Shown here: positions 5,351 through 58,002 of the stretch, in pieces | How positions within the stretch are numbered: position 1 is the first letter of the stretch | Layout: every line of letters starts with the position of its first letter | Assembly (NCBI RefSeq): GCF_055900595.2 | Contig: NZ_CM148325.1 | Length of the DNA: 64,000 bases | Direction: 5' to 3' (one strand) | Program-made: the position numbers and the translations under genes | The notes under the pieces: generated by a model | Told to the model about the DNA's origin: nothing | The model's input: the letters and a program-made list of their open reading frames with translations, nothing else | Database searches by the model: none

Positions 5351-6202
5351 ATGAGTAGTTTGTTGTTGTTTAACGATAAGAGCAGGGCATTGCAGGCGGA
5401 TATCGTCGCCGTGCAGTCGCAGGTAGTGTACGGCAGCGTAGGCAACAGCATTGCCGTGCCTGCTATCAAACAGAACGGCCTGAATGTCTTTGCCGTGCCG
5501 ACGGTATTGCTGAGCAATACGCCGCATTATGACACTTTCTACGGTGGTGCGATTCCGGACGAATGGTTTAGCGGTTATTTGCGTGCGCTTCAGGAGCGTG
5601 ATGCGCTGCGCCAGCTGCGCGCTGTCACCACGGGCTATATGGGAACGGCATCGCAAATCAAAATCCTTGCCGAGTGGCTGACTGCGCTACGCAAAGACCA
5701 TCCTGACTTATTGATTATGGTCGATCCGGTGATTGGCGATATTGATAGCGGAATTTATGTCAAACCTGACCTTCCTGAGGCATACCGACAATATTTACTG
5801 CCTCTGGCGCAGGGTATTACGCCTAATATCTTTGAGCTGGAAATCCTGACCGGTAAAGATTGCCGCGATCTCGACAGTGCCATTGCCGCAGCAAAAAGTC
5901 TGCTTTCAGACACCTTAAAATGGGTGGTCATTACCAGCGCCTCCGGTAACGAAGAAAATCAGGAGATGCAGGTGGTGGTGGTCAGTGCCGACAGCGTGAA
6001 TGTCATTTCCCATTCTCGGGTAAAGACGGATCTTAAAGGAACAGGCGATCTGTTTTGCGCCCAGCTTATCAGTGGCTTGTTGAAAGGTAAGGAATTAACT
6101 GACGCGGTACATAGCGCGGGATTACGCGTGCTGCAGGTGATGCGCTATACCCAGCAGCATGGTAGTGATGAATTGATTTTGCCGCCCCTGACGGAAGCAT
6201 AA
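5351..6202 (+). CDS. pdxK: Pyridoxal/pyridoxine/pyridoxamine kinase PdxK
   Basis: 283 aa, ribokinase-like PL kinase family sequence; position adjacent to crr. Confidence 0.93.
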
Positions 6203-6794: not shown

Positions 6795-8522
6795 TTAGCA
6801 GATTGTTTTTTCTTCAATGAACTTGTTAACCAGCGTCATTAACTCGTCCGTTGTCGGTTGAGCAAGAGCCTGCTCTGCTAACACCTTCGCATCTTCGAAG
6901 TTCGTGTTACGGATAATCTTCTTAATGCGCGGGATAGAAATGGCGCTCATAGAGAATTCGTCCAGACCCATCCCCAGCAACAGAAGTGTAGCACGTTCAT
7001 CGCCAGCAAGCTCACCACACATGCCAGTCCATTTGCCTTCAGCATGAGAAGCATCAATAACTTGCTTGATCAAGTTCAGCACGGACGGTGACATTGGCTG
7101 GTAAAGGTGTGAAATCATATCATTACCACGGTCAACTGCCAGAGTGTACTGCGTTAAATCATTGGTGCCGATACTAAAGAAATCAACTTCTTTGGCTAAA
7201 TGACGTGCAATTGTTGCGGCCGCTGGTGTTTCCACCATTACGCCGATTTCAATTGACTCGTCAAACGCTTTACCTTCGTCGCGCAGTTCCTGTTTGTAGA
7301 TTTCGATCTCTTTGCGCAGTGCACGCACTTCTTCAACAGAGATGATCATCGGGAACATGATGCGCAATTTACCGAAAGCAGAGGCACGCAGGATAGCGCG
7401 GAGCTGATCGCGCAGGATCTCTTTACGATCCATCGCGATACGGATAGCGCGCCAGCCGAGGAACGGGTTCTCTTCTTTCGGGAAGTTCATGTATGGCAGC
7501 TCTTTGTCGCCGCCGATGTCCATGGTACGAACGATAACCGCTTGTGAGCCACACGCTTCAGCTACTGCTTTGTAAGCAGCAAACTGTTCTTCTTCAGTGG
7601 GCAGCGCGTCGCGGTCCATGAACAGGAACTCAGTACGATACAGACCAACGCCTTCAGCGCCGTTACGCTCTGCACCTTCAACGTCACGAACCGTACCGAT
7701 GTTAGCGCACACTTCTACCTGGTGACCGTCCAGCGTAATAGCTGGCAGATCTTTCAGTTTAGCAAGCTCTGCTTTTTCAGAAGCCACTTGCTCCTGAACA
7801 GCGCGCATTTTATCAATAACTTCGTTGGTTGGATTGACGTAAACCTGATTATTTACGGCATCCAGAATCAGATAGTCGTCATTTTTCACCTGAGAGGTGA
7901 CGCTACCGGTACCCACGATAGCAGGCAGTTCCAGAGAACGCGCCATGATAGAGGTGTGGGAAGTACGGCCACCCGCGTCGGTGATGAAACCCAGCACCTT
8001 CTTCAGGTTCAGCTGTGCGGTTTCGGACGGCGTCAGATCAGCGGCAACCAGAATGACTTCATCCTGAATGGCGCTCAGGTCGATAATCTTCAGGCCCAGG
8101 ATGTTGCGCAGCAGGCGCTTACCGATATCACGTACGTCAGCCGCACGCTCTTTCAGGTATTCATCATCCAGCTCTTCCAGGGCAGAAGCCTGACCTTCGA
8201 TAACTTCATGAGCAGCTGCGTCAGCTGTCATGTGCTTATCTTTAATCAGGGCTATGATTTCCTGCTCCAGCTCCTCATCTTCGAGTAGCATAATATGCCC
8301 TTCAAAGATGGCTTCTTTTTCTTCACCGAACGTTTCACCAGCTTTCGTTTTGATCGTTTCCAGCTGGGCTGATGCCTTGGCACGACCGCTCAGAAAACGT
8401 TCAACTTCCTGATCAACCTGGTCGGCAGAAATTTTTTTCCGGTCAATGACAATTTCGTCTTCTTTCAGAAGCAGAGCTTTACCGAAAGCGATACCCGGGG
8501 ATGCTAAAATGCCTGAAATCAT
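6795..8522 (-). CDS. ptsI: PTS Enzyme I (phosphoenolpyruvate-protein phosphotransferase)
   Basis: 575 aa, recognisable EI sequence; ptsH-ptsI-crr operon. Confidence 0.97.
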
Positions 8523-8566
8523 AACCCTACCTTACTTGTGACTGATTTTTAAAAGAACCCGGGAAA

Positions 8567-8824
8567 TTACTCGAGTTCCGCCATCAGTTTAACCAGATGT
8601 TCAACCGCTTTCTGTTCGTCTTCGCCTTCTGCGGAGATAGTCACAACGGTACCTTGAGTCAGGCCCAGAGTCTGCAGTTTAAACAGGCTTTTCGCGCTGG
8701 CGCTTTTGCCGTTGGAAGTCACAGTAATTTCAGAAGTGAAGCCCTTAGCTTCTTTTACAAACTGGGCAGCAGGGCGGGTGTGCAGACCGTTCGGAGCGGT
8801 AATGGTAACTTCTTGCTGGAACAT
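8567..8824 (-). CDS. ptsH: Phosphocarrier protein HPr
   Basis: 85 aa [23 protein letters not shown]... with active-site His15. Confidence 0.97.
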
Positions 8825-9156
8825 TGTATTTCCCCAACTTATAGGTTTAGTGTTGTGGAACTAAAGTCTAGCCTGGCGGTTCGACTTTAGCCTGTATTGT
8901 TAGCGCCAGTTTTTAACAGACGCGACGCACGAAGAGCGCAATACAGTCCTTTGCTGGCGGGTGTTGACCGCTGACGTTTCGTACGTCATTAAACATTATG
9001 CCGCTAAAGGAAGAATTGAACCAAATCATAAAATCGATTCAGCTATGGCTTTTCCTGTAACGATTAATTTCGCGCATCAAAATAATTAGTCTGGTTAAAT
9101 ACCAGTTCCGACAGGCTGAATCAATGCCAGGAGGGGCGAAAGTTTGAAGCAGGCCA

Positions 9157-9185
9157 CAAAAAAGCACCTGAAAAGGTGCTTTTTT
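9157..9185 (-). terminator. Candidate rho-independent terminator of cysK
   Basis: Stem gcacc/ggtgc flanked by A6/T6 immediately 3' of cysK stop on the minus strand. Confidence 0.5.
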
Positions 9186-9207
9186 ACGCATTTTTAACAA
9201 GCTGGCA

Positions 9208-10179
9208 TTACTGTTGCAATTCTTTCTCAGTGAAGAGATCGGCAAACAATGCGGTGCTTAAATAACGCTCACCCGATGACGGTAGAATAACCACAATATT
9301 CTTGTTGGTAAAGCTTTCATCTTCTTGTAGTTTCAACGCTGCAGCAACAGCCGCTCCAGAAGAGATACCTGCAAGAATACCTTCCTCTTCCATCAGACGA
9401 CGCGCGGTAGAAATAGCTTCTTCATTGGTGATGCCAATGACTTTATCGACCAGCTTGAGATCAAGATTAGCCGGGATAAAACCAGCGCCAATCCCCTGAA
9501 TTTTATGCGGGCCAGGTTTAATCTCTTCACCTGCCAGCGCCTGGGCGATAACCGGAGAATCGGTTGGCTCCACGGCGACAGAGATGAGATCAGTCTTGCC
9601 TTTAGTGCCTTTAATGTAGCGGCTGACGCCGGTCAGCGTACCGCCAGTCCCAACACCAGCAATAAATACATCAACCTGACCGTCGGTATCTTCCCAGATC
9701 TCCGGACCGGTGGTTTTTTCGTGAATTTCAGGGTTTGCCGGATTGCTGAATTGTTGCAGCAGTAGGTATTTCTCTGGATTGCTGGCGACAATTTCTTCTG
9801 CTTTTTGGATTGCGCCTTTCATGCCTTTAGCACCTTCGGTCAGCACCAGGTTTGCACCTAACGCTTTCAGCAGCTTGCGGCGTTCAATACTCATGGTTTC
9901 TGGCATGGTCAGGGTGAGTTTGTAACCGCGAGCGGCAGCCACATAGGCCAGTGCAATCCCGGTATTACCGCTGGTTGGTTCAACCAGTTCAACGCCTGGT
10001 TTCAGCACGCCGCGCTTTTCGGCATCCCAAATCATATTGGCACCGATACGGCACTTAACGCTGAAGCTGGGGTTACGAGATTCCACCTTCGCCAGAATGC
10101 GTCCGTTACCGATGCGATTCAGGCGAACCAGCGGTGTGTGACCGATAGTCAGCGAGTTATCTTCAAAAATCTTACTCAT
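9208..10179 (-). CDS. cysK: Cysteine synthase A (O-acetylserine sulfhydrylase A)
   Basis: 323 aa, PLP-lysine motif SVKCRIG; recognised sequence. Confidence 0.97.
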
Positions 10180-46372: not shown

Positions 46373-46648
46373 CTATCGCACAGGATGAATAAGATAATTC
46401 GCCTTTGTCGGAAAAGGGGGCGTGATGTCTTCTGTGAGATTTAATGGTGGCGCATCTTCTCTCATCTTAAACAAAATCGCCTGTGATGGTTGAAGTTTTG
46501 TAGAATGAGTTGTCGTCATCACTGACGTTTTTTCTGTCCCTTTATAGCTCGTCTCACTTCCACCACCAGAAATGGAAAATGCAAAAACATTGCATGCCAT
46601 AATAGAGACCAATAAAAATAAGCTAAAAAGCATTAAGTTTACTTTCAT
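46373..46648 (-). CDS. ypdI: Small secreted/lipoprotein-like protein YpdI
   Basis: 91 aa with signal peptide and Cys near the cleavage region (SIMAC); conserved position. Confidence 0.75.
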   Translation of the reverse strand: MKVNLMLFSLFLLVSIMACNVFAFSISGGGSETSYKGTEKTSVMTTTHSTKLQPSQAILFKMREDAPPLNLTEDITPPFPTKANYLIHPVR

Positions 46649-46790
46649 AGAAAGTTATCCTGAGAATGGCTCACTGAGAACCTACGATGTTATGGCTGTA
46701 TTTACATTTAATTAATCAGTATTTACATCGATATAATAAATGACATCTCTTTGTGGTATATAAGAATAGTTCTCTGCGACAGGAAGCATA

Positions 46791-46845
46791 TTCCTACAAT
46801 TGTAAGACTAAATACTTCTTGCGATAATAACTACAACTGTAAGAT
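46791..46845. promoter_or_regulatory. Two EvgA-box-like 18-bp inverted repeats upstream of yfdX
   Basis: TTCCTACA-AT-TGTAAGAC (46791-46808) and TAACTACA-AC-TGTAAGAT (46828-46845) versus consensus TTCYTACA-N2-TGTARGAA. Confidence 0.45.
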
Positions 46846-46942
46846 AACCCTTTCAAAATGACCGTTGCTCTCTGATTTCTCATTTCATGCTCACCCAATA
46901 TGATGGCGGCGTTTTCTAAAACTGTTAAAGAATGAGGTAAGT

Positions 46943-47575
46943 ATGAAACGTTTAATTATGGCTACGATGGTCACAGCAGTTCTGGCATCTTCAACTGTAT
47001 GGGCTGCTGATAATGCACCGGTAGCAGCACAACAGCAAACTCAGCAAGTTCAGCAAACCCAGAAAACGGTAGCAGCAGAGCGTATCTCTGAACAGGGTTT
47101 ATATGCGATGCGTGACGTGCAGGTAGCGCGCCTGGCTCTGTTTCATGGCGATCCGGAAAAGGCAAAAGAACTGACCAATGAAGCTTCCGCTTTGCTGTCA
47201 GATGACAGTACTGAATGGGCAAAGTTCGCTAAGCCAGGTAAAAAGACCAATGTCAATGATGACCAATATATTTTCATTAATGCATCTGTCGGAATTTCTG
47301 AGAGTTATGTAGCGACACCCGAAAAAGAAGCCGCGATAAAAATTGCCAACGAAAAAATGGCGAAAGGGGATAAAAAGGGCGCAATGGAAGAGCTTCGCCT
47401 GGCCGGTGTTGGTGTAATGGAAAACCAATATCTGATGCCGCTTAAACAGACTCGTAATGCACTTGCTGATGCGCAGAAACTGCTTGATAAAAAGCAATAC
47501 TACGAGGCAAACCTGGCGCTTAAAGGTGCGGAAGATGGAATCATCGTCGATAGCGAAGCACTGTTTGTGAACTAA
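46943..47575 (+). CDS. yfdX: Periplasmic protein YfdX (EvgA-regulated, function unclear)
   Basis: 210 aa with signal peptide; first gene of yfdX-frc-oxc-yfdV-yfdE cluster. Confidence 0.9.
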
Positions 47576-47819
47576 TGCTGACAGGCAGCATATTGAAGTA
47601 AAAGATTTTACTCCCTCCTGGCGACAATTTTTTATGACCACAATACGACCGATTGTGGTCATAAAATTATTTGGCGCTCGCGGTTCTATTAACACGAATT
47701 TTCTATTCCTCAAAGTAAACATCAATAATCCCGTGTCATCACGAAATCATTGTTTATGTTATGTTTTATGGTACGATTTAAAAATCGTAATCATTTCCCT
47801 AACTGTAAATCACAATCGC

Positions 47820-47837
47820 TTCTTACAGTTGTAAGAA
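47820..47837. promoter_or_regulatory. Perfect EvgA-box palindrome about 250 bp upstream of frc
   Basis: TTCTTACA-GT-TGTAAGAA, a perfect 8-2-8 inverted repeat matching the EvgA consensus. Confidence 0.55.
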
Positions 47838-48088
47838 TAACATCACAAATGTCGCGGCTCTCTCTGATTACCGCAAACCAATATTTATCATATTCTTCTT
47901 TTCGTCCTCACTACTTACCATGCAAAAAGGAATTGGAAGTGGCGATGAAATGATTTTCCGCACTTGATACAGGAATTTAAAAATATCGAGTGCAGCTACG
48001 ACGATATTTTGCGGATTATTTATAGAGGGCGTTATGCCTTAAATAAACGCTAAATTAACATATATTTAATTAACTAATAGGTATTGCT

Positions 48089-49339
48089 ATGTCAACTCCA
48101 CTTCAAGGAATTAAAGTTCTCGATTTCACCGGTGTGCAATCTGGCCCATCTTGTACTCAGATGCTGGCGTGGTTTGGCGCTGACGTCATTAAAATTGAAC
48201 GTCCCGGCGTTGGTGACGTAACGCGTCGCCAGCTGCGAGATATTCCTGATATCGATGCGCTTTACTTCACCATGCTTAACAGCAACAAACGTTCTATTGA
48301 ATTAAATACCAAAACAGCGGAAGGCAAAGAGGTAATGGAAAAGCTGATCCGCGAAGCTGATATCTTGGTCGAGAACTTTCATCCAGGGGCTATTGATCAC
48401 ATGGGCTTCACCTGGGAGCATATTCAGGAAATCAACCCACGTCTGATTTTTGGTTCGATCAAAGGGTTTGATGAGTGTTCACCTTATGTGAATGTAAAAG
48501 CCTATGAAAACGTTGCTCAGGCAGCGGGTGGCGCGGCATCCACTACGGGTTTTTGGGACGGCCCGCCGCTGGTAAGCGCTGCAGCGTTGGGTGACAGCAA
48601 CACCGGAATGCATTTGCTGATCGGTTTACTTGCTGCTTTGCTGCATCGCGAAAAAACGGGGCGTGGGCAACGAGTTACCATGTCAATGCAGGATGCCGTG
48701 TTGAACCTTTGCCGCGTGAAATTACGTGACCAGCAGCGCCTCGATAAGCTGGGTTATCTGGAAGAATACCCGCAGTATCCGAATGGCACATTTGGCGACG
48801 CAGTACCACGCGGTGGTAATGCGGGTGGTGGCGGTCAGCCTGGCTGGATCCTGAAATGTAAAGGCTGGGAAACCGATCCTAACGCCTATATTTATTTCAC
48901 TATTCAGGAGCAAAACTGGGAAAACACCTGTAAAGCTATCGGCAAACCAGAATGGATTACCGATCCGGCATACAGTACAGCTCATGCCCGACAGCCACAT
49001 ATTTTCGATATTTTTGCTGAAATCGAAAAATACACTGTCACTATTGATAAACATGAAGCGGTGGCCTATTTGACTCAGTTTGATATTCCTTGTGCACCGG
49101 TTTTAAGTATGAAAGAAATTTCACTCGATCCCTCTTTGCGCCAAAGTGGCAGTGTTGTCGAAGTAGAGCAACCGTTGCGTGGAAAATATCTGACAGTTGG
49201 TTGTCCAATGAAATTCTCTGCCTTTACGCCGGATATTAAAGCTGCGCCGCTATTAGGTGAACATACCGCTGCTGTATTGCAGGAGCTGGGTTATAGCGAC
49301 GATGAAATTGCTGCAATGAAGCAAAACCACGCCATCTGA
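48089..49339 (+). CDS. frc: Formyl-CoA:oxalate CoA-transferase (family III CoA-transferase)
   Basis: 416 aa, CaiB/BaiF family; paired with oxc. Confidence 0.95.
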
Positions 49340-49392: not shown

Positions 49393-51087
49393 ATGTCAGA
49401 TCAACTTCAAATGACAGATGGTATGCATATCATCGTTGAAGCATTAAAACAGAATAATATTGACACTATTTATGGTGTTGTAGGTATTCCTGTGACGGAT
49501 ATGGCGCGCCATGCCCAGGCGGAAGGCATTCGTTATATTGGTTTTCGTCATGAGCAATCTGCAGGCTATGCGGCTGCGGCAAGCGGTTTTCTTACCCAAA
49601 AGCCAGGGATCTGCCTGACCGTTTCTGCGCCAGGATTCCTCAATGGTTTGACTGCATTGGCCAACGCAACAGTAAATGGTTTTCCGATGATCATGATCAG
49701 CGGCTCCAGCGATCGCGCGATCGTTGATCTCCAGCAAGGTGATTATGAAGAGCTGGACCAAATGAATGCGGCAAAACCCTATGCCAAAGCGGCATTCCGC
49801 GTTAACCAGCCGCAGGATCTTGGCATTGCGTTGGCACGCGCTATCCGGGTCTCCGTTTCGGGTCGCCCTGGTGGTGTTTATCTTGATTTGCCAGCAAATG
49901 TCCTGGCTGCGACGATGGAAAAAGACGAAGCATTAGCCACTATTGTTAAAGTTGAAAACCCATCGCCAGCGTTATTGCCATGCCCGAAGTCAGTCACTAG
50001 TGCAATTTCGCTGTTAGCAAAAGCAGAACGGCCATTAATTATCCTTGGTAAAGGCGCGGCGTATTCACAAGCTGATGAGCAGCTTCGTGAGTTTATTGAA
50101 AGTACCCAGATTCCATTCCTGCCAATGTCTATGGCGAAAGGGATCCTGGAAGATACGCATCCACTTTCTGCGGCGGCTGCGCGTTCGTTTGCGCTGGCAA
50201 ATGCTGATGTTGTCATGCTTGTTGGGGCGCGACTGAATTGGTTACTGGCGCACGGTAAAAAAGGATGGGCGGCAGATACACAGTTTATTCAACTGGATAT
50301 AGAACCGCAGGAAATTGACAGCAATCGACCCATTACTGTGCCAGTCGTTGGCGATATTGCATCCAGTATGCAAGGTATGCTGGCAGAACTGAAACAAAAC
50401 ACATTTACGACTCCACTGGTGTGGCGCGATATTTTAAATATCCACAAGCAGCAAAATGCGCAAAAAATGCATGAAAAGTTAAGTACAGATACCCAACCAT
50501 TAAATTACTTTAATGCATTGAGTGCGGTGCGCGATGTATTGCGCGAGAACCAGGATATTTATTTAGTTAATGAAGGGGCAAATACCCTAGATAATGCACG
50601 AAATATTATTGATATGTATAAACCACGTCGTCGTCTGGATTGTGGCACCTGGGGGGTTATGGGCATCGGTATGGGTTATGCTATCGGCGCGAGTGTAACC
50701 TCTGGTTCCCCAGTTGTTGCCATTGAAGGTGATAGTGCTTTTGGTTTCAGTGGGATGGAGATTGAAACGATTTGTCGATATAACCTGCCGGTGACAATCG
50801 TTATTTTTAATAATGGCGGCATCTACAGAGGAGACGGTGTTGATCTCAGTGGCGCTGGTGCACCATCACCAACAGATCTATTGCACCATGCAAGGTATGA
50901 CAAATTAATGGATGCATTTCGTGGCGTTGGATATAACGTCACCACGACAGATGAACTTCGTGATGCTTTAACCACCGGTATTCAGTCGCGCAAACCGACC
51001 ATTATTAATGTGGTCATCGACCCAGCAGCAGGAACTGAAAGTGGCCATATTACCAAACTTAACCCAAAACAAGTCTCTGGTAATTAA
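49393..51087 (+). CDS. oxc: Oxalyl-CoA decarboxylase (ThDP-dependent)
   Basis: 564 aa, thiamine-diphosphate enzyme with [14 protein letters not shown] ThDP-binding motif. Confidence 0.95.
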
Positions 51088-51155: not shown

Positions 51156-52100
51156 ATGCTAACATTTTTTATTGGCGATTTATTGCCTATTATCGTAATC
51201 ATGCTGTTGGGTTATTTTAGCGGCAGACGAGAAACTTTTTCAGAAGATCAAGCCCGGGCATTTAATAAACTGGTATTAAATTACGCTCTTCCTGCGGCCC
51301 TATTTGTTTCTATTACCCGGGCAAACAGGGAAATGATTTTTGCGGACACTCGCCTGACCCTTGTATCACTTGTGGTTATTGTCGGATGTTTCTTTTTCTC
51401 CTGGTTTGGTTGCTACAAATTTTTTAAACGTACCCATGCAGAAGCAGCAGTATGTGCATTAATTGCAGGTTCACCTACCATTGGATTCCTGGGGTTTGCA
51501 GTTCTCGACCCTATTTATGGTGATTCCGTATCAACAGGTTTAGTGGTAGCAATTATTTCTATTATTGTTAACGCAATTACTATTCCTATTGGTCTGTATT
51601 TGCTGAATCCCTCCTCAGGAGCGGATGGTAAGAAGAATAGCAATCTGAGCGCGTTAATCTCTGCGGCAAAGGAGCCAGTCGTATGGGCACCTGTTCTGGC
51701 AACGATCCTGGTGTTGGTTGGGGTAAAAATTCCGGCAGCATGGGATCCAACCTTTAATCTGATTGCGAAGGCCAACTCAGGGGTAGCGGTATTCGCTGCG
51801 GGTTTGACTCTGGCTGCACATAAATTCGAGTTCAGTGCTGAAATTGCTTATAACACCTTCCTGAAGCTGATTCTGATGCCACTGGCACTGCTTCTCGTTG
51901 GTATGGCATGTCATTTGAACAGCGAACATCTGCAGATGATGGTACTGGCAGGCGCATTACCGCCGGCATTCTCCGGAATCATTATTGCCAGCCGGTTTAA
52001 TGTCTACACCCGCACTGGTACAGCGTCATTGGCTGTTAGCGTGCTGGGTTTTGTCGTCACGGCTCCCTTGTGGATTTATGTCAGTCGACTGGTTTCATAA
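51156..52100 (+). CDS. yfdV: AEC-family membrane transporter YfdV
   Basis: 314-aa polytopic membrane protein. Confidence 0.9.
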
Positions 52101-52173: not shown

Positions 52174-53319
52174 ATGACAAATACTGAAAGCAAAGGCCCA
52201 TTTGAAGGGTTATTAGTTATTGATATGACTCATGTCCTTAATGGGCCTTTCGGAACTCAACTCCTTTGTAATATGGGCGCAAGGGTCATTAAAGTTGAGC
52301 CGCCGGGTCATGGTGATGATACCCGCACATTTGGTCCCTATGTGGATGGGCAGTCACTCTATTACAGTTTTATTAATCATGGCAAAGAGAGCGTGGTTCT
52401 TGATTTAAAGAATGACCACGATAAAAGTATATTTATAAATATGCTTAAACAAGCTGATGTATTAGCCGAGAATTTCCGCCCAGGTACAATGGAAAAAATG
52501 GGGTTTTCGTGGGAAACGCTACAAGAAATCAACCCACGTCTCATCTATGCTTCATCGTCAGGTTTCGGACATACCGGTCCGCTAAAAGATGCTCCGGCCT
52601 ACGATACCATTATTCAGGCAATGAGTGGAATAATGATGGAAACGGGATATCCTGATGCTCCGCCAGTGCGTGTTGGCACCTCTCTTGCAGATCTCTGTGG
52701 CGGTGTCTATTTATTCAGTGGAATCGTGAGTGCGCTTTATGGCCGCGAAAAGAGCCAGCGAGGGGCGCATGTCGATATCGCGATGTTTGATGCCACTCTG
52801 AGTTTTCTGGAGCATGGACTGATGGCATATATCGCGACTGGGAAGTCACCACAACGTCTGGGAAATCGCCATCCCTACATGGCTCCTTTTGATGTTTTCG
52901 ATACTCAGGATAAACCAATTACTATTTGTTGTGGTAATGACAAGCTTTTTTCTGCGTTATGCCAGGCACTGGATCTGACGGAACTTGTTGATGATCCCCG
53001 ATTTAACAGCAATATTTTACGTGTACAAAATCAAGCTATTCTTAAACAATATATTGAGCGGACGTTAAAAACGCAGGCAGCTGAAGTTTGGTTAGCCAGA
53101 ATACATGAAGTTGGTGTACCCGTAGCGCCGTTATTAAGTGTGGCTGAGGCCATTAATTTGCCACAAACTCAGGCGAGAAATATGTTGATTGAAGCCGGGG
53201 GAATAATGATGCCGGGTAATCCGATAAAAATCAGCGGCTGCGCGGACCCGCATGTTATGCCGGGAGCGGCAACGCTCGACCAGCATGGGGAACAAATTCG
53301 CCAGGAATTCTCATCGTAA
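52174..53319 (+). CDS. yfdE: Acetyl-CoA:oxalate CoA-transferase YfdE (start trimmed to MTNTESK)
   Basis: 381 aa from trimmed start; family III CoA-transferase, paralogous to frc. Confidence 0.9.
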   Translation: MTNTESKGPFEGLLVIDMTHVLNGPFGTQLLCNMGARVIKVEPPGHGDDTRTFGPYVDGQSLYYSFINHGKESVVLDLKNDHDKSIFINMLKQADVLAENFRPGTMEKMGFSWETLQEINPRLIYASSSGFGHTGPLKDAPAYDTIIQAMSGIMMETGYPDAPPVRVGTSLADLCGGVYLFSGIVSALYGREKSQRGAHVDIAMFDATLSFLEHGLMAYIATGKSPQRLGNRHPYMAPFDVFDTQDKPITICCGNDKLFSALCQALDLTELVDDPRFNSNILRVQNQAILKQYIERTLKTQAAEVWLARIHEVGVPVAPLLSVAEAINLPQTQARNMLIEAGGIMMPGNPIKISGCADPHVMPGAATLDQHGEQIRQEFSS

Positions 53320-56972: not shown

Positions 56973-57587
56973 TTAGCCGATTTTGTTACGTTGCGCGAAT
57001 GTGTAAAGATCCATCAGTGATTTACATTCTAATTTTTCCATCAGGCGACTTTTATACGTGCTGACAGTTTTGTTGCTGATGAACATTTTTTCCGCAATGT
57101 CATTATTGTCCTTGCCATCAAGAATATACCTCATGACACTAATTTCTTGTTTCGATAAGGAGTCGAGTTTTTGCTGGTCGGACGTTAAACTTCCAACAAA
57201 CCGGTTGAGAGAGAAAGGGAAATAGCAGTAGCCATTTTTTGCAGCTTCAATAGCCGCAATGATATTGTTCATGCCTTCTTTTTTACTCACGAATCCATTA
57301 GCGCCTGCATCAGCACAATGTTTCCCGTAAAAATGGTCATTTTTAGCGGAGACGATAATAATAATTCCGCTATATTGGCGCTTCCTCAGCGTTTCTAACA
57401 CCTGGATACCGTTAACTCCGGGGATATCGACATCAATGATGACGATATCAGGTTTAAGTGTTTCCACCCGCTGAACGGCACTTCCCCCTTCAGTCAACTC
57501 CGCTAAGATTTCAATATCGTTTTTGATCAATAAATTACGAATTGCTGCGATAGCAAGAGGATGGTCATCAATAATTATTGCGTTCAT
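56973..57587 (-). CDS. evgA: Response regulator EvgA (NarL/FixJ family)
   Basis: 204 aa; receiver domain plus LuxR-type HTH. Confidence 0.95.
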   Translation of the reverse strand: MNAIIIDDHPLAIAAIRNLLIKNDIEILAELTEGGSAVQRVETLKPDIVIIDVDIPGVNGIQVLETLRKRQYSGIIIIVSAKNDHFYGKHCADAGANGFVSKKEGMNNIIAAIEAAKNGYCYFPFSLNRFVGSLTSDQQKLDSLSKQEISVMRYILDGKDNNDIAEKMFISNKTVSTYKSRLMEKLECKSLMDLYTFAQRNKIG

Positions 57588-57801: not shown

Positions 57802-57819
57802 CTTCTTATTAATCCTACA
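57802..57819. promoter_or_regulatory. EvgA-box-like inverted repeat in evgA-emrK divergent region
   Basis: ATCCTACA-GG-CGTAAGAA versus TTCYTACA-N2-TGTARGAA, one mismatch per half. Confidence 0.5.
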
Positions 57820-58002
57820 GGCGTAAGAATTGTATTGCAAAAGTCACGGTTTAGTCCTCTGTTGTATCTTCTGCAACTCCTTTAAATTAGGCCTCCAACG
57901 TTCCTGGGATAATGTGTAACACATGCACTGTGTTTGATATGAAGAATGAATACTCTTTTCATTCAATTCATAAATTTCATCTATGCGAAATGAGAGATAA
58001 TA

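Follow-up and report, generated by a model that had tools for sequence, protein, structure and literature searches.

The 18-bp palindrome at 47820-47837 of the window (the whole stretch of DNA that was analysed, a segment of E. coli chromosome 64,000 nucleotides long) is very probably the site at which a dimer of phosphorylated EvgA (EvgA-P) activates the oxalate-detoxification genes frc-oxc-yfdV-yfdE from a promoter of their own, apart from the yfdX promoter, as the sequence and the published work taken together indicate. The palindrome is an already described EvgA site and the inference of direct control is the published view; with both the site and its meaning in print, it carries little weight as a discovery. 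The EvgA-dependent promoters of this regulon were reportedly examined by Itou et al. in 2009, and databases give frc-oxc-yfdVE as a separate EvgA-activated unit.

EvgA-bound inverted repeats upstream of both yfdX and yfdWUVE are recorded in the legend to Fig. 2 of PMC3720670, which cites Masuda and Church 2003, and the same paper names yfdX and yfdWUVE separately as induced. In evgS-constitutive mutants the highest fold increase was that of frc, and every directly regulated gene had an EvgA site (PMC4283999). RNA-seq and ribosome profiling show that acid induces yfdX, frc, oxc and yfdV (PMC10746267). A paper on CsrA and EvgA and a regulatory-network preprint both mention EvgA and hold nothing on the frc site.

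The palindrome, its setting and its conservation

Read directly from the letters, positions 47820-47837 are TTCTTACAGTTGTAAGAA, with 8-bp arms that are exact reverse complements of each other and GT between them, and the match to TTCYTACA-N2-TGTARGAA, which an earlier note on this DNA had given as the EvgA consensus, is 18 of 18. The frc ATG stands at 48089, leaving 251 nt between box and ATG, and the yfdX stop at 47575, so that the yfdX-frc spacer (47576-48088) measures 513 bp at 65% A+T. The earlier note had described a perfect inverted repeat lying about 250 bp upstream of frc in an AT-rich spacer after yfdX, and this description was confirmed in all details. On the plus strand the gene order is alaC-ypdK-lpxP-yfdY-ypdI-yfdX-frc-oxc-yfdV-yfdE, followed by evgS and evgA on the minus strand and then by emrK and emrY. 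Both evgA and evgS are intact and adjoin the frc cluster, and evgS is annotated in a strain whose yfdX-frc spacer is 100% identical. The box and the genes concerned are as follows.

46943-47575, plus strand: yfdX, upstream of frc, induced by EvgA and preceded by boxes of its own (ORF list and annotation)
47820-47837, no strand assigned: candidate EvgA box of the frc promoter, TTCTTACA-GT-TGTAAGAA, a perfect TTCYTACA-N2-TGTARGAA match
48089-49339, plus strand: frc (yfdW), formyl-CoA transferase, with which the regulated unit begins (NCBIfam TIGR03253, 783 bits)
49393-51087, plus strand: oxc (yfdU), oxalyl-CoA decarboxylase (ORF and annotation)
51156-52100, plus strand: yfdV, putative transporter (ORF and annotation)
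52174-53319, plus strand: yfdE, acetyl-CoA:oxalate CoA-transferase (start transferred from an identical strain; function from PMC3720670)
53375-56968, minus strand: evgS, acid-sensing hybrid histidine kinase (1197-aa ORF)
56973-57587, minus strand: evgA, NarL-family response regulator (NCBIfam NF007419, EvgA equivalog, 438 bits, full length)

The box is found unchanged in K-12 (NC_000913.3, 2493506-2493523), and of 5,426 complete E. coli genomes 5,403 carry the 36 bp around it (47817-47852) at 100% identity. The whole yfdX-frc spacer reaches at least 99% identity in 14 of these 5,426 genomes and 90-95% in 5,385 (about 92% to most). In an alignment of nine spacer sequences 140 of the 526 columns were variable, the longest invariant runs being both arms of a hairpin after yfdX, 47830-47850 (the right half-site and its flank), 47890-47906, 47926-47940 and the frc ribosome-binding region. 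A divergent Escherichia genome, NZ_JAATUR01, retains only 79% identity across the spacer and is heavily substituted directly 5' of the box; it keeps 16 of the 16 half-site bases, and within the box it differs only at the spacer base 47829 (GT to GC). Invariant half-sites around a free centre are the pattern expected of a site read by a protein dimer.

The spacer of the window (47576-48088) is itself a rare allele, 100% identical only to that of strain Z0117EC0005. The Frc protein is 99% identical although the spacer is ~92% identical to the rest of E. coli, and the allele may represent a divergent lineage or a recombined segment.

Palindromy by itself is unremarkable here. Perfect 8-N2-8 palindromes of any sequence number 4 in the window against 1.1 +/- 1.2 expected from first-order Markov simulations, and since about one per 64 kb arises by chance, the box might be just such a palindrome, functionless, in intergenic DNA rich in A+T. 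It is the match to a motif fixed beforehand that is not chance: exact matches to TTCYTACANNTGTARGAA are expected 6.7e-5 (~7e-5) times per 64-kb window and 1.6e-6 times within the yfdX-frc spacer when the base composition of that spacer is used. With as many as 3 mismatches to the consensus allowed, the window holds 4 matches against 0.63 expected, a number that none of 100 shuffles reached, and all 4 are confined to the spacers upstream of yfdX, frc and emrK/evgA, with none elsewhere in the window, so that this consensus finds every EvgA-controlled promoter of the window. Moreover, the box is invariant in ~5,400 genomes while the spacer diverges by 8-21%. Statistics and conservation together effectively refute a chance palindrome, to which we assign next to no probability.

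The inverted repeat could instead work as an RNA hairpin, for example by attenuating a transcript that reads through or starts upstream. Read as RNA it forms a 7-bp stem with a 4-nt loop (-6.0 kcal/mol, z = -2.7), and PMC3946193 predicts a promoter on the upstream side of the box. Against this, the hairpin is weak, has no U-tract after it and is absent from a terminator scan; its arms are without any variation and hence without covariation, the sole change falling in the central 2 bp; and it is the same sequence motif, rather than any palindrome, that stands at unrelated EvgA promoters. An Rfam scan of 46600-48200 gave no match to the box and only a chance-level one (E = 0.41), which covers the yfdX hairpin on the other strand. 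Energy and context rule out a terminator or structured RNA at the box, and the hairpin explanation as a whole has hardly any chance of being correct.

The motif at other EvgA targets

Besides the frc box, three matches lie in the window.

46791-46808, no strand assigned: candidate distal EvgA box of yfdX, TTCCTACAATTGTAAGAC, 1 mismatch, with a counterpart in K-12
46828-46845, no strand assigned: proximal box-like site of yfdX, TAACTACAACTGTAAGAT, 3 mismatches, right half intact
57812-57829, no strand assigned: candidate EvgA box in the divergent emrK-evgA spacer, ATCCTACAGGCGTAAGAA, 2 mismatches

In K-12 MG1655 the motif precedes safA by 112 bp (TGCCTACAGCTGTAAGAA, as read on the gene strand, with 1 mismatch) and ydeP by 244 bp (AGCCTACACCTGTAAGAA, 2 mismatches); the only remaining match in those 14 kb of K-12, at 3 mismatches, lies inside ydeO. 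The consensus of five sites is TTCCTACA-NN-TGTAAGAA. Direct regulation of ydeP and emrKY by EvgA and binding of EvgA to the safA-ydeO promoter are on record (PMC8174306; PMC9496106), as is EvgA binding at emrKY (PMC8174306). That established direct targets of EvgA (ydeP, safA and emrK-evgA) share the motif with 1-2 mismatches supports the consensus that the earlier note had given as a real EvgA motif.

The sites of the EvgA regulon (ydeP, safA-ydeO, emrKY/evgAS and yfdX) are thus the same 18-bp inverted repeat as that of frc, and all of them, frc included, lie 110-260 bp upstream of a start codon in A+T-rich spacers, the distance from box to ATG at ydeP (244 bp) being almost that at frc (251 bp). 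The frc site is the sole one with 0 mismatches and fully symmetric half-sites, whereas in the others the outer bases of one half are degenerate, a difference in degree and not in kind. The frc box is therefore the best consensus match among the sites found as well as being essentially invariant across E. coli, which agrees with the published finding that no gene is induced more strongly than frc in mutants with EvgS locked on. A mutant design, which is a design only, carries TTCTGCCA as the altered form of the half-site TTCTTACA.

Another NarL/LuxR-family regulator that reads the same hexamer, such as UvrY, could in principle use the palindrome as its operator. Like the frc box, the UvrY/SirA/GacA box is an 18-bp inverted repeat bound by a NarL-family dimer with the same hexamer half-site, the UvrY site being TGTAAG-N6-CTTACA (PMC4682653). 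However, its half-sites stand in the opposite relative orientation and 6 bp apart instead of 2, the frc box being CTTACA-N2-TGTAAG with the hexamers in the reverse order and closer together; the UvrY box also serves other genes (csrB, csrC), from a position near -180. The complete 18-bp pattern with its outer TT/AA was seen again at EvgA targets only, and evgS-constitutive alleles induce frc (PMC4283999). The arrangement of the half-sites rules out a UvrY box at frc, and control of this site by some other regulator of the family is very improbable.

A further likeness is to BvgA of Bordetella, the closest characterised homologue of EvgA. BvgA binds as a phosphorylated dimer to inverted heptads of the type TTTCCTA upstream of weak promoters, which typically add arrays of lower-affinity sites towards the -35 element. 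The TTCYTA core of BvgA sites resembles the EvgA half-site, in another organism and another regulon.

Several smaller likenesses between EvgA promoters were seen. The box-to-start-codon distance is unusually long (~250 bp) in both ydeP and frc. The two box-like sites of yfdX, with 1 and 3 mismatches, lie 37 bp apart (46791-46845), and it is the weaker, proximal one that stands at a frc-like distance from the predicted yfdX -10 element, TATGAT at 46899-46904, on a naive geometry. The element CTCTCTGATT is common to yfdX (46868-46877) and frc (47860-47869), in each case 40 nt after the start of a box (46828 and 47820), and more likeness between the two promoters follows further downstream (TCNTTTCNTNCTCAC and CCAATAT); these common elements suggest, from sequence comparison, that a promoter module was duplicated or that both promoters use one contact element. 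Downstream of their EvgA boxes the promoters of ydeP and safA resemble paralogues, with A(A/C)TCCGC..CA...TGAAGC..CAG.GTCYTATTT in common; the K-12 sites of this comparison are 8731-8748 and 6072-6089 in the coordinates of the extracted K-12 locus.

A predicted frc promoter behind the yfdX hairpin

The features between yfdX and frc that bear on a separate frc promoter are these.

47630-47666, plus strand: terminator-like hairpin after yfdX, its 15-bp stem perfectly paired, its loop 7 nt long, with TTATTT behind it
47859-47869, plus strand: segment with a predicted weak -35 element, CTGATT, within TCTCTCTGATT, conserved, of putative promoter function
47886-47891, plus strand: predicted -10 element, TATCAT (TATTAT in some strains), from our own scan; only the 4th base varies

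The yfdX hairpin folds as RNA at -19.9 kcal/mol (z = -5.7), and its stem is invariant and its loop variable, one closing pair being either U-A or U-G. Downstream of the box, ~58 bp from its centre, TAT(C/T)AT is conserved. If CTGATT-16-TATCAT is taken as the promoter, transcription is predicted to start near 47898, which would put the box centre near -69.5 and give a leader of ~190 nt. The predicted pair matches the -35 and -10 consensus at only 8 of 12 positions, and a stricter consensus scan listed no promoter downstream of the frc box, as might be expected of a promoter that depends on an activator. With a naive -10 scan the box centres fall at -69.5 for frc, -74.5 for yfdX (proximal box), -73.5 for safA, -74.5 for emrK and -66.5 for evgA, so that the box-to-start geometry, in so far as the predicted -10 hexamers hold, is consistent across the five promoters; because -10-like hexamers are common in A+T-rich DNA, the value of -69.5 is uncertain.

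A genomic SELEX study reported in vitro binding of RNA polymerase holoenzyme within the yfdX-frc spacer, which it marked as an H-NS site (PMC3946193); the same paper suggests different hexamers, TTTATA-18-AATAAT, ~100 bp upstream of the box. The hairpin after yfdX, the conserved -10-like hexamer and the reported binding of RNA polymerase together make a separate promoter plausible, and frc probably has its own. Control of frc-oxc-yfdVE by EvgA apart from the yfdX promoter, which the earlier note had proposed, therefore finds support in the sequence and in the literature alike.

The competing explanation is that EvgA does bind the box, but that frc-oxc-yfdVE are expressed mostly by read-through of a yfdXWUVE transcript, leaving the box redundant or a booster. 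Several papers name a single yfdXWUVE operon, the five genes yfdX, frc, oxc, yfdV and yfdE are co-oriented, and the T-tract behind the yfdX hairpin is broken by an A (TTATTT), all of which would agree with read-through. Conversely, the hairpin is strong and conserved, the frc box is under strong constraint besides matching the consensus best, and yfdX and yfdWUVE are induced separately in PMC3720670. Moreover, when EvgA is overproduced the induction of yfdX exceeds that of yfdWUVE by orders of magnitude (PMC4759549), a gap that argues against a single transcript. Read-through as the main route to frc expression is, on this balance, improbable.

The preferred reading, activation of frc from its own promoter by EvgA-P, would proceed as follows. 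Mild acid would activate EvgS, and EvgS would phosphorylate EvgA, which is encoded 9 kb from the box. A dimer of EvgA-P would then bind the two TTCTTACA half-sites, with one helix-turn-helix domain per 8-bp half, and would sit ~70 bp upstream of the weak sigma-70 promoter predicted above. From about -70 it would recruit or stabilise RNA polymerase, in what would be a class-I-type activation, and it might also counter H-NS silencing of the A+T-rich spacer. Transcription would run through frc, oxc, yfdV and yfdE, the proton-consuming oxalyl-CoA decarboxylation route, and wiring of this kind would link acid sensing to oxalate-dependent proton consumption.

The predicted frc leader of ~190 nt folds no better than shuffles (z = -1.8), and we therefore propose no riboswitch-like element in it. 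A 15-codon ORF (MQKGIGSGDEMIFRT, then a stop) lies at 47920-47967, within the predicted leader and in a well-conserved stretch. It is without an obvious Shine-Dalgarno sequence, is unannotated in K-12 and has a C-terminus that is unconserved in the divergent genome, and is probably not a gene.

Elements upstream of the box and the wiring outside Escherichia

A second perfect 8-2-8 palindrome, TACGATTTAAAAATCGTA, lies at 47772-47789, 48 bp upstream of the EvgA box from centre to centre. In K-12 it reads TACGCTTTAAAAAGCGTA, a compensatory change of A:T to C:G, and in the divergent Escherichia genome the adjoining pair has gone from G:C to A:T. Double changes thus affect 2 of 7 pairs, wobbles are allowed on the plus strand only and the RNA fold is -7.2 kcal/mol; the covariation is weak, coming from 8 distinct sequences and being equalled by 35 of 500 shuffles.

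Further upstream, at 47751-47767, stands TGTTTA-TGTTA-TGTTTT. The PhoP box is a direct repeat, (T/G)GTTTA-N5-(T/G)GTTTA, which this sequence matches at 11 of 12 positions. The repeat is present in the allele of the window and in the divergent Escherichia genome, the first half being TTATTA in K-12 and most strains. Since ~140 bp separate it from the predicted start of frc transcription further downstream, it may be a matter of chance.

These two elements, together with the H-NS-marked promoter predicted ~100 bp upstream of the box, are the grounds for imagining a further layer of control upstream of the EvgA box, in which a second regulator or an upstream transcript with a conserved hairpin would modulate EvgA-dependent expression of frc. 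As the one site found without a mismatch, the box might in addition give frc the highest sensitivity among EvgA targets. We hold this elaboration to be unlikely.

Among the matches listed, the closest homologues of Frc outside Escherichia are those of the Morganellaceae Moellerella wisconsensis (87%) and Providencia stuartii (86%), after which identity falls to 78% in Paraburkholderia. No EvgA-type box was found near frc in either Moellerella wisconsensis or Providencia stuartii (frc at 8001-9251 of each extracted locus), and the two loci supply no phylogenetic footprint. Because these closest outside homologues are without the box, the EvgA-frc wiring looks Escherichia-specific as judged on the matches listed, in keeping with the position of evgAS next to the operon. 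The same matches hint that frc-oxc was transferred horizontally and its control rewired according to the host.
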